Numbered from the stretch's first letter, positions 28,798 to 47,230 are shown. The stretch is DNA of 64,000 nucleotides from an uncultured Desulfobacterales bacterium (GCA_964194905.1 CAXMOD010000119.1:6813-70812), one strand, 5' to 3'. The notes: a model not told the origin generated them from the letters alone. Made by a program: numbers and translations.

Positions 28798-30239
28798 AGC
28801 GGCACGCCGTCGTAGCCGCGTGCCTTCGGGTTCGACTCGACGCAGAAGCGCGTCGTCGGGAAGATCTTGCCCGGGTTGGAGACCCCGTCCGGGTCGAAGG
28901 CGGCCCGCAGGCGGCGCATGGGCTCGAGGTCTTCCTCGTCGAAGAGCAGGCCCATGAAGTCGCGCTTCTCGGTGCCGATACCGTGCTCACCGCTGATCAC
29001 GCCGCCGGCCTCGACGCACGTGCGCAAGATCTCCTCGCCGGCCGCCAGCACCCGTGCCAGCTCATCCGGGTCGCGGCGGTCGAACGAGATGTTGGGGTGC
29101 AGGTTACCGTCGCCGGCGTGGAACACGTTGGAGAGTTTGAGGCCGTAGCGGTCGCCGATCGCGCAGACCGCCTCGAGCACTTCGGGCAGCTTGGGACGCG
29201 GCACCACCGCATCGTGCACGTAGAGGTCCGGCGCGAGCCGCCCCATCGCACCAAAGGCGCCCTTGCGCGCGCCCCAGAAACGCTGGCGCTCGGCTTCGTC
29301 GCGCGCCACCTCGACCCGCGCCGCGCCGGACTCGTCGCAGAGCGCGCGCACGCGCTCCACCTCGCGCGTCACGGCCGCGCGCGGGCCGTCGAGCTCGGCC
29401 AGCAGCACGGCGCCCGCGTCCCGCGGCAGCCCCGCGGCGTACACACTCGCCTCCACCGCCTCGATGGTGCGCCGGTCCACGATCTCGAGGGCCGCGGGCA
29501 GCAACCCGGCCTTGATCACCGCACCTACCGCGCGACAAGCGGAGACCACGTCGGGAAAGATCGCCAGAAGCGTCTCGACGGCGTCCGGCCGCGGGACCAG
29601 ACGCACCGTCACTTCGGTCACCACGCCCAGCGTGCCTTCGCTCCCCACGACCACACCGACCAGGTCGTAGCCGGAATCCCAGGCCACGGCGGAGCCCATG
29701 CGCACGACCTCTCCGTCTGGCAGAACCATTTCCAGCGCGAGCACGTGGTTGGTCGTCGTCCCGTACTTGAGCGTGTGCGGCCCGCCGGAGTTCTCGGCCA
29801 CGTTGCCACCGATTGTGCAGGCTGCCTGGCTGGAAGGATCGGGCGCGTAGAAGAGGCCGTGGGGGGCCGCCAGCTCGGAGAGGTGGGCGTTGATCACGCC
29901 GGGCTGCACCACCGCGAGACGCTCCAGCGGGTCGAGCTCCAGAACCCGATCCATGCGCGCGCACTCGATCACCACGCCGTTCTCCAGCGCGAGGGCGCCG
30001 CCCGAGAGGCCGGTCCCGGCGCCGCGCGCAACGAACGGCACACCCGCGCGGCGGCACGCCTTCACCACACGGGCCACCTGGTCCGTGTCGCGGGGGAGCA
30101 CCACGGCGGAGGGCCGCGCACGGTGCAGAGTGAGCCCGTCGCACTCGTACACGAAGAGCTCTTCGGCACGGTGCAAGCAGGCACCCGCGCCGACGACGTC
30201 GACGAGGTCTGCGATCAGTCCGCTGGGTGTGGCGCCCAT
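28794..30239 (-). CDS. glcD: Glycolate oxidase / FAD-linked oxidase subunit GlcD
   Basis: ORF 28794..30392 trimmed to ATG 30239 (MGATPSGLIADL). Contains ARGAGTGLSGGA, TIGGNVAENSGG, and a C-terminal GEHGIG FAD-oxidase_C motif. Confidence 0.9.
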   Translation of the reverse strand: MGATPSGLIADLVDVVGAGACLHRAEELFVYECDGLTLHRARPSAVVLPRDTDQVARVVKACRRAGVPFVARGAGTGLSGGALALENGVVIECARMDRVLELDPLERLAVVQPGVINAHLSELAAPHGLFYAPDPSSQAACTIGGNVAENSGGPHTLKYGTTTNHVLALEMVLPDGEVVRMGSAVAWDSGYDLVGVVVGSEGTLGVVTEVTVRLVPRPDAVETLLAIFPDVVSACRAVGAVIKAGLLPAALEIVDRRTIEAVEASVYAAGLPRDAGAVLLAELDGPRAAVTREVERVRALCDESGAARVEVARDEAERQRFWGARKGAFGAMGRLAPDLYVHDAVVPRPKLPEVLEAVCAIGDRYGLKLSNVFHAGDGNLHPNISFDRRDPDELARVLAAGEEILRTCVEAGGVISGEHGIGTEKRDFMGLLFDEEDLEPMRRLRAAFDPDGVSNPGKIFPTTRFCVESNPKARGYDGVPL

Positions 30240-30280
30240 GCTTCCGAGTCTAGCCCGGCGACCGCGGCACGATGGGCGTC

Positions 30281-31321
30281 CTAGCCCAGGCCGAGCCGCT
30301 CGAGGTCCTCCTCGGAAAGGCCGAGGTAGTGACCGACCTCGTGCTGCACCGTGATCTGGATCTGCTCGATCAGCTCCGCTTCGTCGCGGCACATCCTCTC
30401 GAGGTTGCGCTTGAACAGGATCACCTGGTCGAGGACGGGCTCCGGCTGCGAGACGCTGGCCTCGGTGCGCGGCACGCCGATGAAGATGCCCAGGATCTGG
30501 GGCGAGACGTTCTCTTTTTCGACCAGCTCGACGTCCGGGAAGTCCTGGACGAGGACCGGCACGTTGGCCACGTAGTCGCGGATGGAGCGCGGCAGGTTGC
30601 GTAGCGCTGCCTCGGTGGCCTGGTCGAAGGCCTCCGCGCCGATGGCGGTGGGAAGCGGATAGTGGTCGGGGTCCAGCGCGTCGGCCCGCTCGAAGCAGCG
30701 GCTCACATCGTTCTCGTCAGCGCCCACCCGCTCCAGCGAGAGGGCCAGGTGGTAGACGGCGTGGCTCGACTCCGGCTCCATGGCCACGGCGCGCTCCAGC
30801 GGCCGACGGGCCTCCTCGAAGGAGCCCATCTCGAAGAGGATCTGGCCCTCGAAGGCCCGGTAGATGGCCTGCTCGCCGCCCGCCTTGAGCGCGCGGCGCA
30901 CCAGGAAGAGCGCCCCTTCCAGATCGTCCAGGTAGAAGAGCGCCTTGCTCTTCAGGTAGAGGACCTCCGCCTCCATCGTGCGATCCGGCCGCGGCAGCTC
31001 CTCGCTGCCCGCGAGCAGGCGGTCGCAGTGGTCGATGGCCTGCTCGTGCTCGCCGAACTCCTCCACCAGAAGCTCTGCGCGGTTCAGGTGGGCCGTCGTG
31101 AACTTGGGATCCGCCTCGAGCGCGCGCTCGAACTCGTGCAGCGCCTGCTCCACACGGCCTTCGTCCCACAGGATCTCGCCGCGACCGTTGTGGGCCTCGG
31201 CGCCGTCGGGATGCTCCTGCAGCGCCTGATCGAGCCATGCCAGCGCGGCGTCGGTCCGCCCTTCCTGGGCGGCCGTCATCGCCTCATCGAGGCAGTCCCA
31301 GTATCGATCCTTGTCGCGCAT
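30281..31321 (-). CDS. TPR-repeat protein fused to a minimal zincin (DUF1025-type) metallopeptidase domain
   Basis: 346 aa. The N-terminal ~230 aa are TPR units. The C-terminal part reads ILGIFIGVP...ITVQHEVGHYLGLSEEDLERLG (HExxH). Confidence 0.8.
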   Translation of the reverse strand: MRDKDRYWDCLDEAMTAAQEGRTDAALAWLDQALQEHPDGAEAHNGRGEILWDEGRVEQALHEFERALEADPKFTTAHLNRAELLVEEFGEHEQAIDHCDRLLAGSEELPRPDRTMEAEVLYLKSKALFYLDDLEGALFLVRRALKAGGEQAIYRAFEGQILFEMGSFEEARRPLERAVAMEPESSHAVYHLALSLERVGADENDVSRCFERADALDPDHYPLPTAIGAEAFDQATEAALRNLPRSIRDYVANVPVLVQDFPDVELVEKENVSPQILGIFIGVPRTEASVSQPEPVLDQVILFKRNLERMCRDEAELIEQIQITVQHEVGHYLGLSEEDLERLGLG

Positions 31322-31503
31322 CGCTCTCCGAGGGGCCCCGCCGGGGAGGTACGGGGTGCAAAGCCCAAGCAGGATAGCAGACCGGGATTACACTATATCG
31401 CGTATGCGTCCGTCGAAGAGATGCTGCAACTGGCTGGAACAAAAAGATAAAACGAGATTTCGAGAAGCCCCGATCCCCGAGGGGTCGGCAGGGCGTTGGC
31501 CCG

Positions 31504-32253
31504 CTAAGACGGCTCGGCAGGCTGCGCGGGCGCTGCGCCTGGCTCCACCAGCACCGTCTCGTGGACCAGCACCCGCTTGCAGCTCCCGCACGAGACTACG
31601 CGCGCGGCCGAGATGAGATCGACATAGTCCTGGGGCGGGATCCCCACCCGACAGCCGCTGCACAGCTCCTTCGAGACGATGGCTACGGCCGGACGGCGAC
31701 GCGCGGCTACGCGCTCGTAGCGCGCGAGCGTGGACGAATCCAGCTCGGCCGCGGCGGCGTCCCGGGCCGCGCGCAGGCGCTCGCTCTCCTTCCCGAGCTC
31801 GTCTCCACGGGCCGCGAGGCGCTGCCCCTCCGCATCGACGCGCTGCCCGACGCCGGCGGCGGCGGCCTCCGCCTCGGCGAGTCCCCGGCGCGCCTCCGCG
31901 ATCGCTTCCATCGCCTCGAGGATCGTGTCCTCGAGGGCGCTGGCGGTGGCCTTCGCCTCATCGATCTCCCGCAGCAGGGTCGTATACGCCTCGTTGCTCT
32001 TCACCTGGGCCGTCTGGCCCTCCAGGTGACTCGCGCGCTCCTCCGAGTCCGCCAGCCGGCCCTCCAGCGCGCGCTGCTCCAGCTCCTGCGCCTCCACCGC
32101 CTGGCGTGCCTCGTCCGCGCGCGCGTCGGCGCTCCGGCGCTCGTTCTCGGCTGCCTCACGGCGGCCCGGCAGCCCGGCGGCCTCGTCCTCGACCCGCTTC
32201 AGCTCATCGTCGACGCGAGCCAGGGAAACGAGCTTCCGCAGGGTGTTACGCAC
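31504..32253 (-). CDS. Coiled-coil C4 zinc-ribbon protein (COG1579/DUF164-like)
   Basis: ORF 31504..32529 trimmed to GTG 32253. A long coiled coil is followed by CSGCRVGIPPQ...SCGSCKRVLV. Confidence 0.75.
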   Translation of the reverse strand: MRNTLRKLVSLARVDDELKRVEDEAAGLPGRREAAENERRSADARADEARQAVEAQELEQRALEGRLADSEERASHLEGQTAQVKSNEAYTTLLREIDEAKATASALEDTILEAMEAIAEARRGLAEAEAAAAGVGQRVDAEGQRLAARGDELGKESERLRAARDAAAAELDSSTLARYERVAARRRPAVAIVSKELCSGCRVGIPPQDYVDLISAARVVSCGSCKRVLVHETVLVEPGAAPAQPAEPS

Positions 32254-32323
32254 GCAGCCTCCGTCGGCGCCAGGATCGCCGCGCGGGAGAGTAGCGCGCC
32301 CTCGGGCCGGACCGGAGTATGCT

Positions 32324-32749
32324 ATGGCGGCCTTCGGTGAGTCTTGGAGGAGGAATCGGGTGGAGTGGGTGGCCATCGTGACCGGGCTGGTGCTGGCCGA
32401 GTACGTGTTCTTCATGATGCACACGGGCATGGCCCGGGGGCGCCATGAGGTCCCCGCTCCCTCCACCACCGGCAACCCCGATTTCGAGCGCAGCTTCCGG
32501 GCCCAGGGCAACACCGTCGAGCAGCTCATCGTGTTTCTGCCCGCGCTCTGGCTCTTCGCCCACTATGTCTCGGCCCCGCTGGCGGCCCTGCTGGGGCTCA
32601 CCTTCGGTGTGGGCCGAGCGCTCTACTGGCGGGGCTACGTGATGAACCCGCCGCGCCGCGGCCCGGGCTTCCTGATCGGACTGATCGCCTCCTCCATCCT
32701 GCTGCTCGGTGGAATCCTGGGCGCCCTGGTCGCAGCACTGTCCGCGTGA
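32324..32749 (+). CDS. MAPEG-family membrane protein (microsomal GST-like)
   Basis: ORF 32243..32749 trimmed to ATG 32324. 141 aa with 3-4 TM segments, plus RAQGNTVEQLIVFLP and VGRALYWRGY, both typical of MAPEG. Its stop overlaps the next start (GTGA). Confidence 0.7.
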   Translation: MAAFGESWRRNRVEWVAIVTGLVLAEYVFFMMHTGMARGRHEVPAPSTTGNPDFERSFRAQGNTVEQLIVFLPALWLFAHYVSAPLAALLGLTFGVGRALYWRGYVMNPPRRGPGFLIGLIASSILLLGGILGALVAALSA

Positions 32750-34146
32750 ACCCCTCACGCACCGAGCGCATCCTCCGCATCTTCACCGATGTGAAGCCCG
32801 GCGAGGCCACCACCGCTCTGGTGATGTTCGCCAACGTCTTCCTGATCCTGTGCGCGTACTACCTGATCAAGCCGTTGCGCGAGGGCTGGATCGCCATCTC
32901 GGACGTGAGCGGCCTCTCGAAGATGGAGGTGAAGGCCTACTCCGCCTTCGGGCAGAGCGTGCTGCTCCTCGTGGTGGTGCGCTACTACGGACGGCTCGCG
33001 GCGCGCGTGAACCGGGCGCGCCTCATCGCCGGCGCCACGCTGTTCTGCATGAGCAACATGCTGGTCTTCTGGGCGGTCCAGCCGGACTTCTTCCTGCGCC
33101 ATCTGCCCGGCCCCGGCGTCGCCTTCTACCTGTGGGTGGGCATGTTCGGGGTCTTCATCGTGGCGCAGTTCTGGACCTACGCCGCTGACCTCTACGACGA
33201 CGAGCGCGGCAACCGGCTCATACCCATGATCGCGATCGGCGCCACGGCCGGAGGCGCGTTCGGCTCCCAGATCACCGAAACGCTGGTGGGCAGCGGGCTC
33301 GTCCCCACGAAGTGGCTGCTCATCGCGGCGATGGTGCCGCTCTCGCTTTCCATGCTGCTCACGCTCTGGGCCGAACGGCGCGGGCCGCTGGGAGCGGGGC
33401 CCGAGCCCTCGGAAACCGGACCCGCGGCGCCCGGACCCGGCCTGGGGGAGGCGGGCGGCTCGCAGCGCGAATCGCTCTCCACGGTGCTCAGCAACCGCTA
33501 CCTGCTGATGGTGGCGATCATCACCCTGCTCATGAACTGGGTGAACACCAACGGCGAGAACGTGCTCTACCGGGTGGTGCAGGAGGCGCTCGCAGGCGAC
33601 GCGCTCGCCCAGGGCATCACCGACCCCGTGGAGATCCGAGCCTTCACCCAGGACCAGACTACGCTGTTCTACAGCAACTTCTTCCGCTGGGTGAACTGGG
33701 TCGCGCTGCTCCTCCAGGCGCTGGTGGCCTCCAGGCTGCTGAAGTACGGGGGCTTCGGGGCGATCCTGATGCTGCTCCCGGCGATCGCGCTGGTCTCGTA
33801 CGGCGTGATGGCCCTCCTGCCGGTCATGGCTGTGATCAAGCTCATGAAGGTCGCGGAGAATGGAACCGATTACTCCATCAACAACACCGCGCGCCACGTG
33901 CTGTGGCTCCCGGTGCCGACCGAGATGAAGTACAAGGGCAAACCAACCGTGGATACGCTGTTCGCGCGGCTGGGCGACGGCGCGGCAGCGCTGACGGTGC
34001 TGGTGGGCGAGCGACTGCTGGGCCTGCCCACGAAGGGCTTCCTGGCCTTCACCGTGCTGCTCGTGCTGCTGTGGATCGGCCAGGCCGCGCCGGTGATCGC
34101 CGAGAACCGGCGCCTGTGCCGCGAGGCCGGGATCGACAATGGCTAG
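32746..34146 (+). CDS. NTT/TLC-like (Npt1/Npt2 family, ATP/ADP-translocase-like) MFS carrier
   Basis: 466 aa with about 12 TM segments. The N-terminal VKPGEATTALVMFANVFLILCAYYLIKPLREGW matches the TLC-family opening helix pattern. Confidence 0.8.
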   Translation: MNPSRTERILRIFTDVKPGEATTALVMFANVFLILCAYYLIKPLREGWIAISDVSGLSKMEVKAYSAFGQSVLLLVVVRYYGRLAARVNRARLIAGATLFCMSNMLVFWAVQPDFFLRHLPGPGVAFYLWVGMFGVFIVAQFWTYAADLYDDERGNRLIPMIAIGATAGGAFGSQITETLVGSGLVPTKWLLIAAMVPLSLSMLLTLWAERRGPLGAGPEPSETGPAAPGPGLGEAGGSQRESLSTVLSNRYLLMVAIITLLMNWVNTNGENVLYRVVQEALAGDALAQGITDPVEIRAFTQDQTTLFYSNFFRWVNWVALLLQALVASRLLKYGGFGAILMLLPAIALVSYGVMALLPVMAVIKLMKVAENGTDYSINNTARHVLWLPVPTEMKYKGKPTVDTLFARLGDGAAALTVLVGERLLGLPTKGFLAFTVLLVLLWIGQAAPVIAENRRLCREAGIDNG

Positions 34147-35152
34147 GGGCCGCAGCTCGAGGGCGTGCGCCTGTCTGCTCGCGGCGGCCGTGCTGGCCCT
34201 GGCGCCGCCCGCGCTGCCGGCGCGCGCGGAGTCCGCCGAGGGCTCGGACGACTACGATCTCTTCGACGACCCGCGACTCGAACAACTGCGCCGCCTCGAC
34301 CGGATCGCTCCGTTCGAGGACCCCGCACCGCTCTGGGACTACGTGGATGACGGGCTCGAGTCCGACGTCCGCAAGGCGCTCGACACTCTCGGCCTCAGCG
34401 CTGCCGTGCGGCGCCAGAAGCTCGCGGTGGTGCTGGTGGACATCAGCAAGGTCAGAAGGCCCCGCGTCGCGTCGATCAACGGCGACACCATGCTCTACGC
34501 CGCGAGCCTGCCCAAGATCGCAGTGCTGCTCGGCGCCTTCGAGAAGATCGCCGAGGGGCGCATGCCCGACGATGCGGAGACCCAGCGCCAGCTGGTGAAC
34601 ATGATCCGCGTATCGTCGAACGCGTCCGCCACCCACATGATGAATCGCGTAGGCAAGGACTACATCGCGCGCACGCTCCTCTCGCCGCGCTACCGGCTCT
34701 ACGACCCGGACCACAACGGAGGCCTGTGGGTGGGCAAGGACTACGGCAAGGCCGGCCTGTGGAAGCGCGACCCCCTCCACAACCTCTCCCATGGCGCCAC
34801 GGCCATGCAGGTTGCGCGCTTCTACTACATGATGCAGACGGGAAAGCTCGTGACGCCCGAGTACAGCGCGCGGATGAAGGAGATCCTCTCCGACCCGGCC
34901 TTGTACCACAAGTTCGTAGGCGCGCTGATGCGGGTGAACCCCGCGGCCACGCTCTTCCGCAAGTCCGGCACGTGGCGCACGTTCCACGCGGACAGCGTTC
35001 TGGTCGAGCGTGGGCGTCACGCCTACATCGCCGTGGCCCTGGCCGACTCCTCGGAGGGCAGCCGCTGGATGAAGGAGATCATCGTCGCCCTGGACGGGAT
35101 CGTCTTCGGCAAGAGCTGGCTGCACCGCCTGGCGGGCTGGCCCCGGCGTTGA
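34139..35152 (+). CDS. Secreted class-A beta-lactamase-fold serine hydrolase
   Basis: 337 aa. Signal peptide (CLLAAAVLALAPPALPARA), S-x-x-K (ASLPK), S-x-N (VSSNAS) and K-S/T-G (RKSGTW). The ATG overlaps the NTT stop by 8 nt. Confidence 0.8.
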   Translation: MARGRSSRACACLLAAAVLALAPPALPARAESAEGSDDYDLFDDPRLEQLRRLDRIAPFEDPAPLWDYVDDGLESDVRKALDTLGLSAAVRRQKLAVVLVDISKVRRPRVASINGDTMLYAASLPKIAVLLGAFEKIAEGRMPDDAETQRQLVNMIRVSSNASATHMMNRVGKDYIARTLLSPRYRLYDPDHNGGLWVGKDYGKAGLWKRDPLHNLSHGATAMQVARFYYMMQTGKLVTPEYSARMKEILSDPALYHKFVGALMRVNPAATLFRKSGTWRTFHADSVLVERGRHAYIAVALADSSEGSRWMKEIIVALDGIVFGKSWLHRLAGWPRR

Positions 35153-36574
35153 TCAGGGGCGCGAGGGTGCTTCCATGTCCGTGCCGTCCGGCATCTGGTT
35201 CATCACCTCGGCGTCGTCCGGGATGTCGTCCTCTTCCATCGGTTGATCCGCGAGGATCTCCTCGGCGCTGCGCTGCGGCTTCGCCTCCTCGCCCTCCAGC
35301 GGGTGCCGCGACTCGATCAGCTGGTGCACCTGGGTCCCCAACAGGCGGTGCGCCTCCGATGAGTTCTTGCGCAGCACGTTGGAGAGGACCACGGCGATGT
35401 AGTGGAGCTTCTGCTTCTGATCGACGCTCTCCACCATGGTCACTGAGTTCATGAAGTTGCGGACGTTACCCTTGTACTTCTCGCAGTGGAAGCCCTTCTC
35501 GGGCCTGCAGCCGTACCAGGAGCCGGACTTGAAGTAGATGGCGTAGTCCCAGAGCACCGGCGTGGACCCGTAGCGAATGCGCTTGTCGGTGATGTACAGA
35601 AGCTTCTTCATCTTCAGGCTCGACCATTCGTCGATCAGCTTGCCTTGCTCTGCGAGCAGCATCACACGCAACAACTCCTGGGCGCTGGCGTGACTCGAGA
35701 TGCCCGGGATGCGTCCCTTGCCGGTGCGGGTGAAGAGGCTGCCCTGACGGAGCTGGGCGGGGTCGAGCCCACTCCCCGTCGTGCCGCGCTTCATCGCCTC
35801 GATGAAGATCGCGCCCAGCCGCGACTTGGGCGTGCCCTTCAGGAACGCGTTCGCCGCCTCGGGGCTGGACGGGTACGCGGTGCCGAAGTGCTTGAGCAGC
35901 ACGAGTTCCTTCTGGAGCACCGCAGCACCGGCGTTGGAGCTGGTGGAGAGCATCCAGTCGAGCCAGGTATACAGGTTGGCGGTGTCGCCGAGGGCGATGG
36001 GCCGGCGGATGTACTGGCGGTCGCCCGGCGCCCAGAAGGGCACGTTGTGGGAGTCGCGTACGATGTATTCGTCCGCGGTCACCTGGGTCTCGCGCAACAC
36101 CCGGTGGCGCGCGTCCACATCGTCCGGGTACAGGTCGGCCAGCGCCTGGAACCAGGCGAGGCCCACCATGATCTTTCCCACGCTCCCCGGATTCTGCAGC
36201 TTGGTGGGGTTCCAGGCCGCGTAGGCCGGTGCGTCGGGGTCGGACAGATCGAGGATCGCCACGCCGTACGCGTCGGCGTCCGCCCCCAGCAGCTCCCGCA
36301 CCTGGCTGGTGAAGCGGGCGTGGCGCTGCGGCAGAGTGAACTCCGGGCGGTCCAGCATGCGCAGCTTCAGTTCCTTGCTGTAGAGCTGTGCTCCCCAGTA
36401 CAGGATGATCCCGGGGATCACACCGTCCTGCGCCAGCTTGTAGGCCTCCAGCCGCGCAATGCCCGTCTCCGGGTAGGCGTCCAGCGGATAGGCGTAGGCG
36501 CCGCCCGCGGCGAGTCCGGCCAGCAGCAGTGCAGCGAGCGCAACGCCCGCAAGGAAGGGCCTGGACCGACCCAC
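35153..36574 (-). CDS. Secreted beta-lactamase-fold serine hydrolase with acidic C-terminal tail
   Basis: 473 aa with a GTG start immediately after the dikinase TAG. Signal peptide (FLAGVALAALLLAGLAAGGAYA), GSVGK (SxxK), STSSNAG (SxN) and FKSGSW (KSG). The tail EEDDIPDDAEVMNQMPDG is acidic. Confidence 0.75.
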   Translation of the reverse strand: MGRSRPFLAGVALAALLLAGLAAGGAYAYPLDAYPETGIARLEAYKLAQDGVIPGIILYWGAQLYSKELKLRMLDRPEFTLPQRHARFTSQVRELLGADADAYGVAILDLSDPDAPAYAAWNPTKLQNPGSVGKIMVGLAWFQALADLYPDDVDARHRVLRETQVTADEYIVRDSHNVPFWAPGDRQYIRRPIALGDTANLYTWLDWMLSTSSNAGAAVLQKELVLLKHFGTAYPSSPEAANAFLKGTPKSRLGAIFIEAMKRGTTGSGLDPAQLRQGSLFTRTGKGRIPGISSHASAQELLRVMLLAEQGKLIDEWSSLKMKKLLYITDKRIRYGSTPVLWDYAIYFKSGSWYGCRPEKGFHCEKYKGNVRNFMNSVTMVESVDQKQKLHYIAVVLSNVLRKNSSEAHRLLGTQVHQLIESRHPLEGEEAKPQRSAEEILADQPMEEDDIPDDAEVMNQMPDGTDMEAPSRP

Positions 36575-39532
36575 CTAGTGCCCCTTCGCCACGTCGCCGA
36601 GATCGACCTTGGCGGAGCCTCCGACCGAGGCGTCGAGCTCGAGGAGGTGGGTGTTGCGCCGCGCGGACTTGTTCTCCACGAAGGGGCGCAGCTGGAGCAG
36701 CGCGAGCTTGCCGTCCTTGAACGCGAACTCGATGTCGGCGGGCCGGTTCTCCCCGCCTTCGCGCAGGCTTGGGAATTTGTCCGGGGCCTTGCGCGCCAGA
36801 TCGACGAGCTGGGCGATCTCGCCTTCGGCGAGGATGGTCTCCGTCCCCGAAGCGGGCCGCTTCACCACGCCGCCGTTCCCAGAGAGCAAGGTACGACTCG
36901 GCGCCGTAGCGCGCGCCAGGTAGATCACCTCGGACCCGTCCGCGCGCACCGCGAGGGACTCGGTCGCCTGACCGTCGACGGCGCCGCCCACGCCTTCGTT
37001 CACCGCCACCGACAGCCATTTGCGACTGCCCGTGTCCACGTCGGCCGTCACCATCACGCCCGACTTCTCCGCGGCAAAGCCCAGCTGCACGACCACCGCC
37101 GGAAATACGTACTCGGGATCCTCCATGTGGGACTGCCGCCAGCTGTACGCCCGCTCGCTGAACGGCGACGCCCACACTTCACGCACGGCCGTCGAAATGC
37201 CCTTCACGCCCACCACGTTGGGAACGGTCTTGTTGAGTCCCGCTCCGGTGAAGCCGGCCAGGTCTTCCACGTTGGTGTCGCTGCGTACGAAGACGCCGTA
37301 CGTGCCGTCCTTGCCGAAGGTCTTCTTCAGCATGGCGACGAGGCGGCGGTCGAAGTCCTCGCCGAGATCGGCTTCGGTCAGCCAGGTGCGCAGGCGTGAC
37401 AGGAACTCGTTCACAACGCGCTTCTGGGCCTCGGGCCGATCCTCCATGCGAGTGATGAGCCCGTAGCGCGCACGCATCCAGTCCCACACCGAGAGTCCGT
37501 CCGGCTCGATGGGCTGGTCCAGAAGCTCGCGGAACACGCCGAACGGGATGACGAAGCCGGCGGGCACCGTTTCCCCGAAGTTGTGGCGCAGCTCTCCGAG
37601 GTTGGCGCCTTTGGGGCCGGACAGGCGCCCGGAGTCGCTGGCGCGCAGATCGTCGAGCGACACGAAATCCTTCACCGAAAGGTCCAGCTGCTCGAGGTCC
37701 GGCCGGATCACCACTTCGTCACCGGGCTCGACCGACTTGCCGATCGTCTTCTTCGTGCCGAACACGGCGTCCCACTCGGGCCCGTCCTTCTCGAGCTGCA
37801 CCACGCCGCCGGGCGAGACCGCGAGCACCACGTGCTGGCCCACGTTGCGCTGAACCGCCGGCAGCAGCGACTCGCGAACCACGACGTTCGGGATGCCCAG
37901 GTTGCGCGCGAGGAGCTGAACGTGGGAGAGCGAGCTGCCCTCGCCGCGGGTCAGGATGCCCGACACCGGCGGCAGCTCGGAGACCGTCTCCGGCAGGAGG
38001 TAGATGCCGTCGCGCCGCAGCGACTCCACGTGGCCGCCGCTGGGCACGAGCAGCGTCCCGCGGGCCAGGCCCGGATTGAGTGCGCGCAGACCCGCGCCGG
38101 CGCGCTTGCCGAACATGCGGTGCTCGATGCCGGCCACGCGGTTCGCGTCGTTGACCAGGCCATCGAGGTTGGCGCCGTAGAAGAGCAAGGGGCTGCCGCG
38201 CAGGCGGTCCTGGGGATAGAGGTGGGAAACAGGCTCGATGGCGGCCCATTTCTCCACGACGTCGCCGAAGTGGAAGCGCACCCAGCGATCGGCCCACTCC
38301 GGCGCGCGCCCCAGGTAGCGCAGTTCCTTGCGGTAGGCGTCCACCTTCAGCTTGCGGTTCGCCTCGAGCCGGTCGAGCGAAGCTTCGAGGCCGCTCAGCT
38401 GGCGCTCGCCGATCAGACCGGCGCCGTACAGTCCGCCGGCCGCGGTGCGCAGCCACTCGAGGCGGGTGCGTCGATCCGCGCCCGCAAGGCGGGCGACCAG
38501 CGTGTTGCCCGCCGCGTACGCCTCGTCCTCCATCGCCAGGCTGGCCATCAGCAGCACGTGACCGCGGGCCACCGAGGTGGTGGCCCCGATGCGTGCCCGG
38601 TACTCGCGCAGCAGCCGGCATGCCTCGGCGTAGCGCGCGTCGGTCGTACCGGCGGCGGCCAGGGCCTCGGCGTCCTCGCGAAGCAGGCCGGCGACGGACG
38701 ACTCGCCCGTGCCCTGCGCCTTCTGGGCCAGGGCGCGCAGCTCGTCCGGCCCCGACTGCGCCGAGTAGAGCTCATCGATGGCGCCGGCGAGGCGCGCGTA
38801 CAGCTCGGTGGCCCCCGGCTTGCCGCGCTGTGCGGCGTGGTCGCGCACAGCCTTGGCATCCGCCGCGGAAGGCGCGTTGTGGATCTTGGCACGCAGCTTG
38901 TTGAAGCCCGAGTCCGCGTTGGCCACCTCGATGGCGAGCTCCCGCACTTCCATGGCGGTGGCGCCGGCCAGCTCGCGCGGGAGCAGCCGCACCGTCTCTC
39001 GCAGCAGGTAGAAGCGCACCTCGCTGCGCCACCCCGGATCGGCGAGCAGGGCATCCAGCACGCGGCGCGTGCCGGCCTCTTCGTCCTCGACCTGGAGCGC
39101 GCCGCGATACGAGAGAGCACCGCGGAAGATCCAGCCGTCGTCCATGCCGATCAGGAATCGCTCCAGCAGGATCTGCTTCAGCTGGTCGAGATCCGCCGAC
39201 TTCCCGACGAAGGTCTTCCCTTCGAGGCGCGCCAGCACGTTGCCCAGCGTGTACCCGCCCTTGCGCATGGCGACCACGCGGTCGTTCCACTGGCCGTGCT
39301 GTATGCCGCCGCCGTGCTTGGCGCAGGCGAAGGCCTTGGGCGGCTGCACGCTGTCATCGTTGCAGAACCAGCGGATGCGGATGAAGGGACCCTTGGGAGA
39401 GGCCTTCATTTCGGTCACCCAGGTCCGCAGCTTCTCGGGCGGAGGGAGGGCGGCGAGGGCCGATGAGGCCGCTGCGAGCAATAGGACGAGAGCCAGGAAC
39501 ACGGGTGCCAGCGGGGGGCGCGATTCGATCAT
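36575..39532 (-). CDS. PPDK/PpsA-type dikinase-like protein with N-terminal signal peptide. Domain order: unknown ~500-aa domain, then swivel phospho-His domain, then C-terminal ATP-grasp (PPDK_N). No PEP/pyruvate TIM barrel.
   Basis: ORF 36575..39793 trimmed to ATG 39532 (MIESRPPLAPVFLALVLLLAAASSALA|AL). The swivel motif is GILTRGEGSSLSH(537)VQLLARNLGIPNVVV, with the His codon at 37922-37924. The ATP-grasp reads GPKGANLGEL...VFVRSDTNVEDLAGFTGAGLNKT...VREVWASPFSERA...ADIEFAFKDGKLALLQLRPF. Confidence 0.8.
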   Translation of the reverse strand: MIESRPPLAPVFLALVLLLAAASSALAALPPPEKLRTWVTEMKASPKGPFIRIRWFCNDDSVQPPKAFACAKHGGGIQHGQWNDRVVAMRKGGYTLGNVLARLEGKTFVGKSADLDQLKQILLERFLIGMDDGWIFRGALSYRGALQVEDEEAGTRRVLDALLADPGWRSEVRFYLLRETVRLLPRELAGATAMEVRELAIEVANADSGFNKLRAKIHNAPSAADAKAVRDHAAQRGKPGATELYARLAGAIDELYSAQSGPDELRALAQKAQGTGESSVAGLLREDAEALAAAGTTDARYAEACRLLREYRARIGATTSVARGHVLLMASLAMEDEAYAAGNTLVARLAGADRRTRLEWLRTAAGGLYGAGLIGERQLSGLEASLDRLEANRKLKVDAYRKELRYLGRAPEWADRWVRFHFGDVVEKWAAIEPVSHLYPQDRLRGSPLLFYGANLDGLVNDANRVAGIEHRMFGKRAGAGLRALNPGLARGTLLVPSGGHVESLRRDGIYLLPETVSELPPVSGILTRGEGSSLSHVQLLARNLGIPNVVVRESLLPAVQRNVGQHVVLAVSPGGVVQLEKDGPEWDAVFGTKKTIGKSVEPGDEVVIRPDLEQLDLSVKDFVSLDDLRASDSGRLSGPKGANLGELRHNFGETVPAGFVIPFGVFRELLDQPIEPDGLSVWDWMRARYGLITRMEDRPEAQKRVVNEFLSRLRTWLTEADLGEDFDRRLVAMLKKTFGKDGTYGVFVRSDTNVEDLAGFTGAGLNKTVPNVVGVKGISTAVREVWASPFSERAYSWRQSHMEDPEYVFPAVVVQLGFAAEKSGVMVTADVDTGSRKWLSVAVNEGVGGAVDGQATESLAVRADGSEVIYLARATAPSRTLLSGNGGVVKRPASGTETILAEGEIAQLVDLARKAPDKFPSLREGGENRPADIEFAFKDGKLALLQLRPFVENKSARRNTHLLELDASVGGSAKVDLGDVAKGH

Positions 39533-39602: not shown

Positions 39603-42600
39603 ATGCTGCGCCGAATCGGCATCCGGCCTGGAGAACTTCCCATCGTAGGGTGGGCGGCCCTGACCCTCTTTTTGCTGGGCTGGGCGGACGTCTCGATGAA
39701 GAACGTCTCGGAGGTGTTCTTCGCGAAGCGCGTCGGCGTGGAATTCTTTCCCGCCGCCTTCCTGCTGAGCTCGCTCCTGCTGGTGGGGACCACCTACCTG
39801 GTGGCGGGGCTCGCCGGCCGCACGGACCGGGTCCGCCTGCTCCCCAAGCTGCTGCTGGGACTGGCGGTGTCCCTGCTGCCCTTGTGGTTGCTGCTGCGAA
39901 CCGGCCACGTGGTGGGAGCGGCTCTCCCGCTCTTGCTGAGCAAGCAGGTGGAATCGATCGCGCTGATCTCCTTCCTGCTCGCCCTGGGCGACCTCCTCCA
40001 CCAGCGCCAGAGCAAACGCCTGCTGGCGCCGCTGATGGCGGGCATGACGCTCGGCTACATGTTGGGGAGCTTCGCGTCGGACCCGATCGCGGACGTGCTC
40101 GGGATCGACGGACTGCTGCCGTTCTCTTCGGGGGTGATGGCCCTCGCCGCGCTGTGCGCGCTCCCGCTGCGCAACGTGGGGCGTCCGCGCCTGGCCGGCG
40201 AGTCCGGCGCCGGCCCCGAGGTGCCGACCCTCGCGCCTCTACCCGTGGCGGCGCGCAGCGAGGCCACCGGCGTGCGCCGCCTGTGGCGCGAGAGCCAGCT
40301 GTTCCGGTTGCTGGCGCTGCTCACCGCCTTCAACGCGCTGCTCGGACCCATGCTCTACTACCAGTTCCAGTACGTGGCCGACATCGCCACGGCCGGAACC
40401 GACGGAGAAGATCGGCTGCTCGCCATCTACGCGCAGTTCCGCGGCTGGATCAGCGTCGGCATCCTGGTGATCCAGCTCGGCCTGGCCTCGAACCTGTTCA
40501 AGCGCATCGGCCTGCCACTGGCCGCGGCCATCTCGCCCGTGGTCTATCTGCTGGGCTTCGCGGGCCTCTCCATCCAGCTCTCGCTCACGGCGGGCGTCGC
40601 CGCCCTCGCGGGAACCAAGCTGGTCGACGACGCCGTCTTCGACCCGGCCCTGCGCGTGCTCTACAACCTCTTCCGCGAGGGCATCCGCGCGCGCGCCAGT
40701 GCGCTCCTCGAGGGACCGGTGAAGCGGATGGGCGGCGTCGTCGGAAACGTGCTCACCCAGGCCGCCATCGCCTTCGGTGGCGCGGGGCTCGTCGGGTTCC
40801 TGGCCCTGCCGGCCGCGGCCGCCTGGGCCGGGGTGGCCATCCTGCTCTGGCGCATCTACCCCAGGCTCCTGCTGGGCGCCGCCGGCACGCGGGGCGCGCG
40901 CGGCCTTGATCCCCTGCCGATCAGCGAGCTGCTCGACCGCGGCACCGAACGCCTGCTGGCGCAGCAGCTCGTGAGCCCCGACCCCGAAGTCTGCCGCGTA
41001 GCCATGGACCTGTGTGCCGAAGCCGATCCCCTGCGTGCGGTGGGCGGATTCGCGCGGGCGGCGGGGCAGGCACCCGAGACGACGCGGCCGTTGTTGGTCC
41101 TGGGTCTCGACCGCCTGCTCGAGGCGGCCGTCGCCGACCCCATCACCAGCCGCGACGCCGCCGAAGACCTGGTTCCGCTGCTCGCCCGCGACGAGGTGCG
41201 GGGCTTGGAGCGCGCCAACCTCGTTCAGGCCTACGGTCGCCTGACCCTCAGCCAGCCAGCCCCGGAAGACCGGGCGCTCCTGGAGGAAGCGCTGGCCTCG
41301 CCGGAGGCGGCGGTACGCCTGGCCGGGCGCACCGCTCTCCACCGCCGCGGGGAGGAGAGCGAAGCGACGATCGCCCAGACACTTTCCGAGGCCGTGGCCG
41401 GCGAGGATCCGGACGAGCGTCACATTGCGCGCGAAGAGCTGCGCGCGTTGCTCCTGCAGCACTCGCCCGAGACCGACGGTCCGGCATTCGATGCGCGCGC
41501 CGAGTTGCTGACCCGGCTTCTCGAGCGCCCCGCGGATCGCGCCGACGCGGCCGAGGCGCTCGCCGACGTGGTGCGCCACCACGGCGCGAGCGCCGTGAAG
41601 AGCGCCGAGCCCGTGCTGGCGCTGTGGGGCGACCCGGACCCCCGGGTGCGCGCGGCCGCGCTGATCTGCGCCGGCCACGGCGGTCTGCGCGAGCGCGCCC
41701 GCGCCGTGCTCGAGTGCATCGACGATCCCGACGAGCTGGTGGCCGCCGCCGCGCACGAAGCCGTGCTGGCTCTCGGCACAGCCGCGGCGGACGTACTGCT
41801 CGTGGAGCTGAGCTACGGCCGGCGCAGCCGCCGCGAGGCCATCCTGCGCCTCGTGCGCGAGATCGAGGTGGGCCAGACGGCCCTGCGGGCGTTGTACCTG
41901 CGCGAACTCCAGGAGGTGCACCGCACGCTGTTCAACCGCGCGGTCCTCGATTCCGCCGACCTCTCGCCCATCGTCCTACAGCGGCTCGACGAACGCCTGG
42001 ATGAGGGCCTGCACGCGCTGCTCCAGCTGCTGTCCGCCCTGCACGATCAGGAGTCGCTCGGCGACGTGGGTTCCCAGCTGCGCCGCTCCCGCGACCCGCG
42101 CCGCCGCGCCATCTTCATCGAGGCGATCGAGGCCTTGCTGGAGGGCGAGGAACGCCGCGCCATCGTCCCGCTTCTGGAGGACCGACCCCTGCGCCACCGC
42201 GCAGAGGCCATCGCGTCGTCCCGGGGCATGCCTCTCCCGCCGATGGACATCGCGCTCGACAGCCTGCGGGACGACCCGGACGAGCTCACCCGCATCCTCG
42301 CAAACGCCGGTCAGAGGCGGCCGCTGGCCGCCGCCGGAGATCTCGGGGATCATGCGGCGATGCTCGAACCCGTGGAGGTCGCACTCTATCTCCGCAAGAC
42401 GCCTCTCTTCGAAAGCCTCTCCACGCGCAACCTCATGGAGATCGCCAGCGTCACCCGCGAGGAGCGTCTCGCGGCGGAGGACATGCTCTTCCGCGAAGGC
42501 GAGAGCGGCACCGCCATGTATCTCATCGTGGCCGGCCGCATCCGCATCGTGCACGGTGAAACGACCGTCGCCGAACTCGGACCCGAACAGTTCTTCGGCG

Positions 42601-42782
42601 AGATGGGGATGCTGGAAGGGCTGGAGCGCTCTGCCGCGGCGATCGCTGCGTGCGACGTGCATCTGCTGCGGCTGGAGCGCGACGACCTGCTCGCGCTGAT
42701 GGAGGAACTCCCGGCGATCGCGATCGGCGTGGCGCAGGAACTGTCGCGGCGCCTCCGCCAGGCGACCGAACAGATCGCCTAG
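39603..42782 (+). CDS. Tripartite protein: NTT/TLC-like carrier domain + HEAT/ARM repeats + C-terminal cyclic-nucleotide-binding domain
   Basis: Track ORF 39069..42782 trimmed to ATG 39603 (MLRRIGIRPGELPIVGWAALTLFLLGW...NVSEVFFAKRVG). About 12 TM segments in the first ~430 aa. HEAT-like repeats follow (DPDPRVRAAALICAGHGG, DDPDELVAAAAHEAVLALG). The cNMP domain reads LRKTPLFESL...FFGEMGML...ERSAAAIA. Confidence 0.8.
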   Translation: MLRRIGIRPGELPIVGWAALTLFLLGWADVSMKNVSEVFFAKRVGVEFFPAAFLLSSLLLVGTTYLVAGLAGRTDRVRLLPKLLLGLAVSLLPLWLLLRTGHVVGAALPLLLSKQVESIALISFLLALGDLLHQRQSKRLLAPLMAGMTLGYMLGSFASDPIADVLGIDGLLPFSSGVMALAALCALPLRNVGRPRLAGESGAGPEVPTLAPLPVAARSEATGVRRLWRESQLFRLLALLTAFNALLGPMLYYQFQYVADIATAGTDGEDRLLAIYAQFRGWISVGILVIQLGLASNLFKRIGLPLAAAISPVVYLLGFAGLSIQLSLTAGVAALAGTKLVDDAVFDPALRVLYNLFREGIRARASALLEGPVKRMGGVVGNVLTQAAIAFGGAGLVGFLALPAAAAWAGVAILLWRIYPRLLLGAAGTRGARGLDPLPISELLDRGTERLLAQQLVSPDPEVCRVAMDLCAEADPLRAVGGFARAAGQAPETTRPLLVLGLDRLLEAAVADPITSRDAAEDLVPLLARDEVRGLERANLVQAYGRLTLSQPAPEDRALLEEALASPEAAVRLAGRTALHRRGEESEATIAQTLSEAVAGEDPDERHIAREELRALLLQHSPETDGPAFDARAELLTRLLERPADRADAAEALADVVRHHGASAVKSAEPVLALWGDPDPRVRAAALICAGHGGLRERARAVLECIDDPDELVAAAAHEAVLALGTAAADVLLVELSYGRRSRREAILRLVREIEVGQTALRALYLRELQEVHRTLFNRAVLDSADLSPIVLQRLDERLDEGLHALLQLLSALHDQESLGDVGSQLRRSRDPRRRAIFIEAIEALLEGEERRAIVPLLEDRPLRHRAEAIASSRGMPLPPMDIALDSLRDDPDELTRILANAGQRRPLAAAGDLGDHAAMLEPVEVALYLRKTPLFESLSTRNLMEIASVTREERLAAEDMLFREGESGTAMYLIVAGRIRIVHGETTVAELGPEQFFGEMGMLEGLERSAAAIAACDVHLLRLERDDLLALMEELPAIAIGVAQELSRRLRQATEQIA

Positions 42783-45784: not shown

Positions 45785-47221
45785 CTATCGCATCAACTCC
45801 TGACGGCGCTCGTAGGTCGCCGTCTCGGTGCGGTAGGCGACGTAGTACTTGAAGATATTGCTCACGTAGCGCACAGGCTCGCGGCCGACGCGCCGCGCCA
45901 CCACCACTTCCACGTTTTCGAACCAGCGGTTCGGGTCGAGCCCGATCCGCTCCGCCTCGCCGCGCAGACGTTGGATACGGTTCGGACCGGCATTGTAGCC
46001 GGCGAAGGCGAGCAGCTGACGGTTCAGCTCGTCGAGTCCCGGATCGTTGAAGTAGTTGTTCACCAGCACGCGCAGGTACTTCACACCGGCGTGGATGTTG
46101 TTCTCGAGGTCCTGGATCTCGGGGATGCCCACCTCGTGGGAGGCCGCCGTCGAGGGCAGCACCTGCATCACCCCCACCGCTCCCGCCGAGCTCACCAGGT
46201 TCTGGTCGAGACCCGACTCCTGGAACGCCTGCGCCGCCACCATCAACCAGTCGAACTCGTAACGGTTGCCGTATTGCTGAAAGAGGTGGCCCATCTCCTC
46301 GAGCCGCTGGAGGGAGCGCTCGGTACGGTTGTTCTTCACCCAGGGATTCTTCTTGAAGTAGCGCTTCATCAGGACGTTCCCGAACAGGGTCCCCTTGCGG
46401 TGCGTACGCATGAAGGCGTCCACCTCCGCCTTGAGCTTCGGCGCATCCTGGGGCAGCGCCCAGGCGATCTCGACGTCGTCCCGGAGAGCGGCTTCATCGT
46501 ACACCGTGAGCGTGTCCCACACGTCGGCCCAGAACGCCGCAAGGTACGAGTCCGCGACGGTGAGGGGCGCGGTGCCCGCGGCCGTGAACTCCAGCAGGTC
46601 CTCGGTCTCCAGCGCCTCGTCCGCGGCCACGATGCGCACCGGTGCGCGGCCCTCCGCGGCAAAGCGGGCGTTGAGCGCGGTGAGACTCTCGTAGAAGCTG
46701 CTCGACCGCCGCACCCAGATCTCGCGGCCCGACAGGTCCTCGATGGAGCGGACCGGCTCGCTCTCCGGGCCGCCCACGACCAACTCGCGCACACCCGTGA
46801 TTGAGGGGCTCCCGAACGCCACCTCACGTTGGCGCAACTCGGTCACGCTCAGGTTGGCGGCGGCCATGTCGCCCTTGCCTTCGACGAGGCGCGAGATGAG
46901 CTCGTCACGGGCGACGGGAATGTAGACGACCCCGATGGGTCGGCGGCGCAGTTTGAGCTTCTTGTTCAGCTGCTTGACGAATTCCTCGACCGCCTCGAAG
47001 GTGAGGCCCCGCGGAGTGGCGCCGTCGAGGAAGTAGTTGGTGCGGCTGTACGTGGTGAGAACCCGCAGGCGGCCGCGTTCGATGATCCCGTCGAGGTCTC
47101 CGTACCAGACCTCGTCGAAGCGGATCTCAGACTCGAACGGATCCACCGAGTCCTTCGGTTCCGCCCATGCGGAGAAGGAGAGCTGCACGACTGCAGCGAC
47201 GACGCCGATCCAACGAAGCAC
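45785..47221 (-). CDS. mltF: Membrane-bound lytic murein transglycosylase F-like (SBP_bac_3 domain + SLT domain)
   Basis: 478 aa with a signal peptide and a periplasmic-binding-like N-terminal half. The SLT catalytic region reads AQAFQESGLDQNLVSSAGAVGVMQVLPSTA...AGYNAGPNR. Confidence 0.85.
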   Translation of the reverse strand: MLRWIGVVAAVVQLSFSAWAEPKDSVDPFESEIRFDEVWYGDLDGIIERGRLRVLTTYSRTNYFLDGATPRGLTFEAVEEFVKQLNKKLKLRRRPIGVVYIPVARDELISRLVEGKGDMAAANLSVTELRQREVAFGSPSITGVRELVVGGPESEPVRSIEDLSGREIWVRRSSSFYESLTALNARFAAEGRAPVRIVAADEALETEDLLEFTAAGTAPLTVADSYLAAFWADVWDTLTVYDEAALRDDVEIAWALPQDAPKLKAEVDAFMRTHRKGTLFGNVLMKRYFKKNPWVKNNRTERSLQRLEEMGHLFQQYGNRYEFDWLMVAAQAFQESGLDQNLVSSAGAVGVMQVLPSTAASHEVGIPEIQDLENNIHAGVKYLRVLVNNYFNDPGLDELNRQLLAFAGYNAGPNRIQRLRGEAERIGLDPNRWFENVEVVVARRVGREPVRYVSNIFKYYVAYRTETATYERRQELMR

Positions 47222-47230
47222 GGGTTTCTC

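Follow-up and report, generated by a model that had tools for sequence, protein, structure and literature searches.

A stretch of 64,000 nucleotides from an uncultured Desulfobacterales bacterium (GCA_964194905.1, CAXMOD010000119.1:6813-70812), referred to here as the window, carries on its minus strand an open reading frame (ORF; 36575-39532) for a protein of 985 amino acids (aa). Judged from its sequence, this protein represents a new family within the swivelling-His dikinase superfamily. Together with two predicted exported PBP-like proteins and a homolog of the NTT nucleotide carriers, the dikinase appears to form an obligate unit. We lean slightly towards the view that it is a Sec-exported periplasmic 'X, water dikinase' that would obtain its ATP from the linked NTT and phosphorylate an envelope substrate handled by the PBP-like enzymes. 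The module suggests deliberate use of ATP chemistry outside the cytoplasm by some bacteria. The dikinase finding is most interesting for the conserved association of the enzyme with NTT transporters and PBP-like enzymes.

Only two Pfam matches were found in the dikinase, the mobile domain of PEP-utilizing enzymes and the PPDK_N ATP-grasp. The first, PF00391, covers aa 512-552 (E 3e-5) and scores just above the gathering cut-off (23.9 bits versus 23.1). It marks a predicted phosphohistidine swivel domain of aa ~479-585 (37778..38098), in which the codon of H537 lies at 37922-37924. The second, PF01326, covers aa 639-958 with E 3.3e-33 and 115.8 bits against a cut-off of 27, and places the PPDK_N-type nucleotide-binding domain at aa ~625-960 (36653..37660). 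The protein ends about 25 aa past the ATP-grasp with a short C-terminal tail (aa 961-985, with the stop codon at 36575..36652), in which no Pfam domain was found. No match to the PEP/pyruvate TIM barrel (PF02896, PEP-utilizers_C) was obtained in the Pfam search of the dikinase, even at E<=10. A preliminary description had read from the sequence a swivel motif GEGSSLSH with His537, a C-terminal PPDK_N-type ATP-grasp and no PEP/pyruvate TIM barrel, and the searches bear out all of this.

The histidine of GEGSSLSH is residue 537 and was invariant in alignments of 66 and of 41 homologs. In the 66-homolog alignment, S536, G532, N544 and P548 of the swivel domain were conserved to at least 97% along with H537, and so were K641, R750, T769, E935, Q947 and R949. 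The ATP-grasp aligns with the ATP-grasp of rifampin phosphotransferase (RPH) and of PEP synthases in the PDB. K641, R750, T769 and E935 are aligned to K22, R117, T136 and E297 of RPH-Lm, the Listeria rifampin phosphotransferase, where these residues position the ATP phosphates and Mg2+ (PMC4844700). The catalytic residues of the dikinase therefore appear intact, and the two-step swivelling-His mechanism of the superfamily would be the natural reading by analogy. An exhaustive profile search of a library of 1.84 billion proteins (E<=1e-3) returned at least 1165 clusters at 50% identity, mostly of 960-1000 aa, so the sequence features of the family are not due to chance.

The part in front of the swivel domain had been described as a region of about 500 aa that is helical and carries no recognised motif. 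No Pfam or NCBIfam match was found for aa 1-500, and the segment WFCNDD...FACAKHGGG was located at aa 55-76, with C57 and C70 invariant in the homologs. A structure of aa 28-480 was modelled with AlphaFold2 from an alignment of 38 sequences and reached a pLDDT of 92.3 and a pTM of 0.84. In this model, a small two-stranded element at the N-terminus leads into a body made up of helices throughout, so that the helical character holds for most of the region. When the first 160 aa were modelled alone, the pLDDT was 93.9. In a Foldseek search of 350,542 PDB chains, the whole model gave nothing below E 0.4, with a best TM-score of 0.17, and the model of the first 160 aa gave no match either (best E 0.9). 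The rifampin-binding domain structures 5FBS and 5HV1 and the PPDK and PpsA chains in the PDB were not matched. By the model, the N-domain is a confident autonomous fold without a relative in the PDB. A diverged TIM barrel or PEP/pyruvate domain was rejected for this region, given the helical model, the Foldseek result and the Pfam result for PF02896.

Two parts can be told apart in the N-domain. Part 1 (aa 28-240; 38813..39451) is the family-specific conserved core. Part 2 (aa 241-478; 38099..38812) is helical in the model, adjoins the swivel domain and ends with DRLRGSPLLFY. The invariant positions cluster in aa 48-230, and the invariant motifs are HGGGIQHG (with H79), DDGWIFRGAxSYRGALQxEDE (aa 130-151) and LRAKIHNxPDAxDA (with R214, K216, H218 and D225). 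The consensus of aa 131-151 reads D131-G-W-I-x-R-x-A-x-x-Y-R-G-A-x-Q-x-E-D-E151. R312, E335 and R445 are conserved as well.

When aa 1-496 were used as a query, 57 relatives were found, the best at 55% identity and all of them uncharacterised. Eighteen N-domain relatives are stand-alone proteins of the exported type, about 448 aa long, that end just before the swivel domain would begin. They have kept the N-terminal invariant core, whereas R445 and P448 of the DRLRGSP motif are replaced. The loss of these residues where the swivel domain is missing fits a division of labour in which the core would bind the substrate and the R445 region would serve phosphotransfer from the swivel domain. The stand-alone form is found in Myxococcota. 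One of its genes (locus L003, 10001-11344) has TauD, CHRD, SCO1/SenC and PCuAC-like genes as neighbours, and this context has nothing in common with the dikinase module.

The public names of the N-domain relatives are "phosphoenolpyruvate synthase", "PEP/pyruvate-binding domain-containing protein" or "hypothetical protein". Taken literally, the first two would make the protein an ordinary PEP synthase or PPDK whose N-terminus is a diverged PEP/pyruvate-binding domain, and the best NCBIfam matches are indeed PEP synthase models. These matches, however, like those to the rifamycin phosphotransferase and PigC/RedH models, cover the ATP-grasp only and reach about 100 bits, whereas the cut-offs are 600-1700 bits. 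Among the PEP synthase models, the highest score is 105 bits, the cut-off being 883. In addition, the domain order is reversed and the protein is predicted to be exported. The NCBIfam scores, the N-domain model, the Foldseek result and the absent TIM barrel refute a plain PEP synthase or PPDK, to which we give next to no credence, and "phosphoenolpyruvate synthase" is a database misnaming of the family.

PpsA and PPDK run from the ATP-grasp through the His domain to the TIM barrel. The dikinase shares with them the ATP-grasp (PF01326), the mobile His domain (PF00391) and the presumed two-step phosphotransfer, but it has no TIM barrel, the order is reversed, the N-terminal domain is new and export is predicted. 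The order from N-terminus to His to ATP-grasp is that of the plant glucan water dikinases (GWD/PWD), as had been proposed, and was found again with Pfam and with collinear profile and BLASTP alignments. In both cases a substrate side is followed by the phosphohistidine domain and a C-terminal ATP-grasp, and the presumed chemistry is shared, with the beta-phosphate passed to the substrate and the gamma-phosphate to water.

For the comparison with GWD, plant entries named alpha-glucan water dikinase were used together with GWD-like proteins of Planctomycetes and Nitrospirales. With hhalign, the dikinase family was aligned to the C-terminal ~700 aa of GWD with a probability of 99.4% and E 1e-21 over 527 collinear columns, corresponding to aa 238-841 of the window protein. 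BLASTP between the dikinase and a bacterial GWD-like protein gave 23% identity over 484 columns (E 3e-8). The shared order of His domain and ATP-grasp therefore reflects real homology and is more than analogy. For the first ~210 aa of the dikinase, hhalign with the pre-His region of GWD revealed no similarity (P 0.51). When the helical region before the His domain was compared alone with trimmed profiles, the result was not significant (P 0.07-0.12), with the register being the same as in the full-length alignment: LDxSLxLE is placed on LDLALE, IEPxa on LQPxAE and DRLRGSP on EEIIRGG. This helical region may be related to the corresponding region of GWD.

Several features set the dikinase apart from GWD. 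Its His domain scores as PF00391 and not as GWD1_pHisD: no match to PF22973 was found in the dikinase at E<=10, whereas this model gives 172 bits with a plant GWD (P0205) and 118 bits with a bacterial GWD-like protein (P0302). No CBM45 or CBM20 was matched by Pfam in aa 1-500, where the modelled fold is helical with a small beta element. The VRSDTNVEDLAGFTGAGLNKT motif stands in the PpsA/RPH position in the dikinase, whereas in GWD it is near the C-terminus, and the layout of the R-S-D-x-N-x-E-D...AG motif in the dikinase ATP-grasp is PpsA-like. GWD is plastidial or cytoplasmic and the dikinase is predicted to be exported, and the partner genes differ. No GWD structure has been solved (PMC12892837). 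The dikinase thus shows the GWD domain order but, by its sequence features, is neither a GWD nor a PpsA nor a rifampin phosphotransferase.

Two observations on GWD itself were made in the course of this comparison. The GWD motif R-S-D-S-N-G-E-D-L-E-G-Y-A-G-A-G follows the VWASKWNERAY and AVLVQ segments, whereas in PpsA, RPH and the dikinase family it precedes them; the shift amounts to a sequence permutation within the ATP-grasp. GWD-like proteins with PF22973 and PF01326 (P0269, P0274, P0290, P0292 and P0302) were found in metagenome bins of Planctomycetes/Gemmataceae and Nitrospirales. Over the C-terminal 420 aa their identity to plant GWD is 44-49%, which means that GWD-type dikinases are not confined to plastid-bearing eukaryotes.

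RPH resembles the dikinase, as do PigC/RedH and the flavonoid and other small-molecule dikinases, in having three domains and no TIM barrel. In RPH, a swivelling phosphohistidine carries the beta-phosphate to a family-specific helical substrate domain, and the same is proposed here for the dikinase. The ATP-grasp sequences are similar, with the equivalents of K22, R117, T136 and E297 conserved (PMC4844700). The differences are that RPH runs from the ATP-grasp through the substrate domain to the His domain, that it is cytoplasmic, that the N-domain does not resemble the RIF-binding domain in its fold, and that the rifamycin phosphotransferase model NF041857 gives 101.8 bits (E 3e-29) against a cut-off of 999.

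The predicted signal peptide, MIESRPPLAPVFLALVLLLAAASSALA, comprises aa 1-27 (39452..39532, minus strand). It contains a single arginine (R5) and a hydrophobic core, and the predicted cut, with AL behind it, comes after A25-L26-A27. The translation thus contains the single basic residue, the hydrophobic core and the A-x-A site from which a Sec-type signal peptide had been proposed. The homolog N-termini agree: in 82 of 84 a hydrophobic segment directly precedes the conserved mature start, L-P-x-x-x-L-R-x-W-I-x-x-M-K, with Arg or Lys often ahead of the segment and AxA-like sites (AxA, AFA, ALA) often after it. The predicted signal peptide appears to be a family-wide feature.

An in-frame ATG further upstream, at 39643, had been named as a start that would leave the protein without a signal peptide. 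It lies inside the coding region of a divergent plus-strand gene and finds no support in the homolog N-termini, so we rejected it; an extension to this ATG would only lengthen the n-region and keep the hydrophobic segment. The divergent gene encodes an NTT-HEAT-cNMP-binding fusion transporter of 1059 aa (39603..42782, plus strand), identified by its MFS_1, HEAT and cNMP_binding matches. Its in-frame ATG at 39531 overlaps the dikinase ATG (39532, minus strand) in one CATG. The Met at 39603 is where the alignment of its homologs begins, and it is a more probable start of the gene than the ATG at 39531. This start leaves about 70 bp between the dikinase and the divergent gene for two divergent promoters, and the related loci are similar.

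On the other side of the dikinase, three genes follow. The first encodes BlaL473, an exported-type class-A beta-lactamase/PBP-A-like protein of 473 aa (35153..36574, minus strand), with a GTG start directly after the dikinase stop codon. The second encodes BlaL337, an exported-type Beta-lactamase2/PBP-A-like protein of 337 aa (34139..35152, plus strand). The two genes are convergent with their ends back-to-back, and the start of BlaL337 overlaps the stop codon of the third gene, which encodes an NTT-family (TLC, ATP/ADP-carrier-like) inner-membrane transporter of 466 aa (32746..34146, plus strand).

BlaL473 has the motifs SVGK, SSN and KSG and the pair C356/C364, all invariant in its family, and BlaL337 has SLPK, SSN and KSG, again invariant. 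PF13354 is matched by BlaL337 (E 3.4e-12) and by 27 of 28 BlaL473 homologs, with no match in the BlaL473 of the window itself. The families of BlaL473 and BlaL337 were aligned by hhalign with a probability of 98.5% (E 2.8e-15). Single-sequence searches of the PDB with BlaL473 and BlaL337 gave no match, nor did the BlaL473 profile. The BlaL337 profile weakly matched its closest solved relative, PBP-A Tll2115 (2j7v, E 7e-4). PBP-A, a cyanobacterial DD-peptidase, is a DD-carboxy/endopeptidase (PMC11189452). A signal-like N-terminal segment was present in 57 of 60 BlaL473 homologs and in 48 of 54 BlaL337 homologs.

The 466-aa NTT matches PF03219 (TLC) with 24.6 bits, the cut-off being 21. Two NTT ADP/ATP carriers of solved structure, 9j3n (E 1.2e-24) and 9j3j (E 7e-19), are matched by its family profile across the entire 12-TM core, with about 390 of 399 profile positions aligned. 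The N-terminal part of the divergent NTT-HEAT-cNMP protein is similar to this family, so that both transporters of the module are counted with the NTT carriers of Chlamydiae, Rickettsiales and plastids. The NTT-HEAT-cNBD architecture is widespread in free-living bacteria and is of unknown function (Major et al. 2017, PMC5381601). In the divergent protein, the cNMP-binding domain (aa 945-1058) also matches Pycsar-effector cNMP-binding domains of PADLOC (E 1e-13), a similarity at the domain level only. The PADLOC matches in the module are limited to this domain, and a role of the module in anti-phage defence was rejected.

To see how widely the genes are kept together, one genome per GTDB species was scanned. 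N-domain relatives are encoded in at least 586 genomes, which belong to Myxococcota, Desulfobacterota, Gammaproteobacteria, Nitrospirota, Mariprofundus and Hyphomicrobiales. The gammaproteobacterial carriers include the cultured Guyparkeria, as well as Halothiobacillus and Thioalkalivibrio; in Guyparkeria sp. TX1 (NZ_CP144142.1), the whole module spans about 2,277,600-2,284,100. The closest relatives, at 63-64% identity, are in metagenome-assembled genomes of Myxococcota, and by this similarity the window would probably be assigned to Myxococcota. Synteny was analysed with the ORFs of the 80 best loci and of three earlier ones (83 loci), and partners were counted in the 49 loci with at least 7.5 kb downstream. 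BlaL337 was present in all 49 and the NTT in 48, the remaining locus having the NTT-HEAT-cNMP form. BlaL473 was found downstream of the dikinase in 46 of the 49 loci. The divergent NTT-HEAT-cNMP gene was upstream of the dikinase in 14, which are of the Myxococcota type. All-against-all clustering of the flanks in the 83 loci revealed no further conserved partner such as a phosphatase or an outer-membrane protein, the next family being present in 13 loci. Literature searches for an exported or periplasmic dikinase, or for a cluster of a dikinase with NTT and PBP-like genes, returned nothing relevant, and the partnership is undescribed in the searchable literature.

In some long-read metagenome contigs (L001, L002, L005, L029, L055, L074 and L076), apparent frameshifts break the gene of the dikinase or of BlaL473 into two or three ORFs. 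Since the pieces are collinear and conserved, these are probably assembly errors rather than pseudogenes.

The NTT and the two PBP-like neighbours make the export of an ATP-dependent enzyme plausible and provide a first lead on its function. One may also imagine a dikinase that stays in the cytoplasm, held at the membrane by an uncleaved N-terminal anchor with the catalytic domains inside, that uses cytoplasmic ATP next to an NTT serving an unrelated nucleotide import or exchange. ATP-dependent enzymes are normally cytoplasmic, and the periplasm is generally regarded as devoid of ATP. In addition, the characterised NTTs are importers (PMC5381601). However, positive charges before the hydrophobic core and small residues at −3 and −1 are the pattern of a cleavable Sec signal, which would leave the mature part outside. 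Both PBP/beta-lactamase-like partners belong to an exclusively extracytoplasmic class and have predicted signal peptides, the dikinase and BlaL473 each contain an invariant pair of cysteines, and the stand-alone N-domain paralogs also have predicted signal peptides. We consider a cytoplasmic dikinase unlikely.

If the enzyme is exported, it might belong to a periplasmic module that inactivates xenobiotics or antibiotics, in which the dikinase would phosphorylate an antibiotic as RPH does and the two partners would hydrolyse beta-lactams. The ATP-grasp is as similar to the rifamycin phosphotransferase model (NF041857) as to the PEP synthase models, and the partners match PF13354, the 'Beta-lactamase enzyme family', and have kept SxxK/SxN/KSG. 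Yet the module is chromosomal and strictly syntenic, its carriers being hundreds of environmental chemolithotrophs, sulfate reducers and Myxococcota, and the identity from one phylum to another is 40-60%. Such a distribution is the pattern of a housekeeping envelope function and not of mobile resistance genes. The lack of structural similarity between the N-domain and the RIF-binding domain speaks against it as well, and among solved structures BlaL337 comes closest to a DD-peptidase, PBP-A, and not to a beta-lactamase. The obligatory NTT partner would be left unexplained. An antibiotic-inactivating module is, in our estimate, improbable.

For the exported 'X, water dikinase' that we favour, the following course of events is proposed. 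The NTT would carry ATP from the cytoplasm outwards, with AMP/ADP and phosphate probably taken up in return, and in the Myxococcota-type version a second, cNMP-regulated NTT-HEAT transporter would also be present. The ATP-grasp would then pyrophosphorylate H537, with the gamma-phosphate leaving as Pi, and the swivel domain would take the beta-phosphate across to the N-terminal domain. In this domain, a conserved site of basic and acidic residues, for which R143, R214, K216, H218, R312, E335 and R445 are candidates, would hand the phosphate on to an oxygen nucleophile on a substrate of the cell envelope. With PBP-like enzymes as partners, the acceptor may be peptidoglycan or a related peptide or glycan.

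Two versions of the last step can be envisaged. In the first, the phosphate would be placed on a hydroxyl of the polymer and would mark or loosen it, opening the polymer to the serine enzymes as hydrolases. This would resemble GWD, whose phosphorylation makes starch accessible to hydrolases (PMC12892837). In the second, a carboxylate, e.g. of the stem peptide, would be activated by conversion to an acyl phosphate. Class A and C beta-lactamases and the R61 DD-peptidase accept acyl phosphates as substrates (PMC6268044), so an activated stem-peptide carboxylate could be the acyl donor for the PBP-like enzymes. The transfer itself, from phosphohistidine to a carboxylate, is textbook chemistry in succinyl-CoA synthetase.

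That the NTT exports ATP, retrieves AMP/ADP and Pi and in this way feeds the dikinase, as a dedicated extracytoplasmic ATP economy for ATP-driven cell-wall chemistry, is a tentative proposal with a less than even chance of being right. Characterised NTTs import host nucleotides, whereas here the host is free-living and the partner is a predicted exported ATP-dependent enzyme, which suggests the opposite direction of transport. A similar problem is posed by the exported ligase Lig E, for which the periplasmic ATP source has been called an outstanding question (10.64898/2026.03.22.713542). Lig E, too, is a signal-peptide-bearing enzyme that needs ATP outside the cytoplasm, but its fold and chemistry are unrelated, and lig E has no syntenic partner, whereas the dikinase module encodes a candidate ATP supplier.

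The flow could also run the other way, with the exported enzyme acting on nucleotides in the periplasm or outside the cell, for example towards ATP from AMP, Pi and an energy-rich phosphodonor, and the NTT importing the product as in intracellular parasites. Such a nucleotide salvage or energy scavenging would agree with the reversibility of PPDK-type reactions and with the nucleotide import for which the NTT family is known (PMC5381601). The dikinase, however, has no Pfam domain for a PEP-type high-energy donor, and thermodynamics disfavours running the reaction backwards from ordinary phosphoesters. Salvage would leave the two conserved PBP-like partners without an explanation, and the N-domain, being large and conserved, has the look of a site for a specific substrate. 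We regard salvage as quite improbable.

Several points weigh against the exported dikinase fed by the NTT. Export is predicted from sequence features, and so is the enzymatic activity of every family member. All characterised NTTs import nucleotides into bacteria or plastids (PMC5381601), and the export direction assumed here was read from topology and synteny. The TLC match of the window NTT is weak (24.6 bits), and its substrate could be other than ATP. The link to peptidoglycan comes from the protein family of the partners, for which the match to the closest solved relative is weak (E 7e-4). Finally, the C57/C70 pair, together with H73 and H79, could be a metal site rather than a disulfide.

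The findings bear on the questions of whether Gram-negative bacteria can use periplasmic ATP and how it would be supplied, since all 49 sufficiently long loci link the gene of a predicted exported ATP-grasp enzyme to that of an ATP/ADP-carrier homolog. They also concern the role of NTT transporters, including the NTT-HEAT-cNBD fusions, in free-living bacteria, where none has been assigned (PMC5381601), and the substrate range of swivelling-His dikinases, to which a family is added whose substrate domain folds confidently in the model without a solved relative. If the extracytoplasmic ATP economy is true, it would give the NTTs of free-living bacteria a first function and overturn the assumption that there is no managed ATP supply in the periplasm. 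If the acceptor is peptidoglycan, the module would represent a new way of modifying or repairing the cell wall, in which energy is spent outside the cytoplasm and PBP-like enzymes take part.

Other genes of the window lie around the module. About 3 kb from it, an MltF-like protein with SBP_bac_3 and SLT lytic transglycosylase domains, a peptidoglycan enzyme, is encoded on the minus strand (45788-47230); its gene is not part of the conserved module in other loci. Next to it lies a gene for a PQQ-dependent dehydrogenase beta-propeller with a C-terminal cytochrome c domain (47234-49822, minus strand). Further away, at 23256-26291 on the plus strand, there is an ORF of 1011 aa with a coding-like GC3 of 0.87 and no Pfam match. 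Upstream of the module, genes for an FAD-linked oxidase, a TPR + Zincin_1 protein and a CT398-like/Zn-ribbon protein are found on the minus strand (27502-32562), and in locus L002 (429-3455), which would belong to a related Myxococcota genome, the FAD-linked oxidase and TPR + Zincin_1 genes also flank the module.

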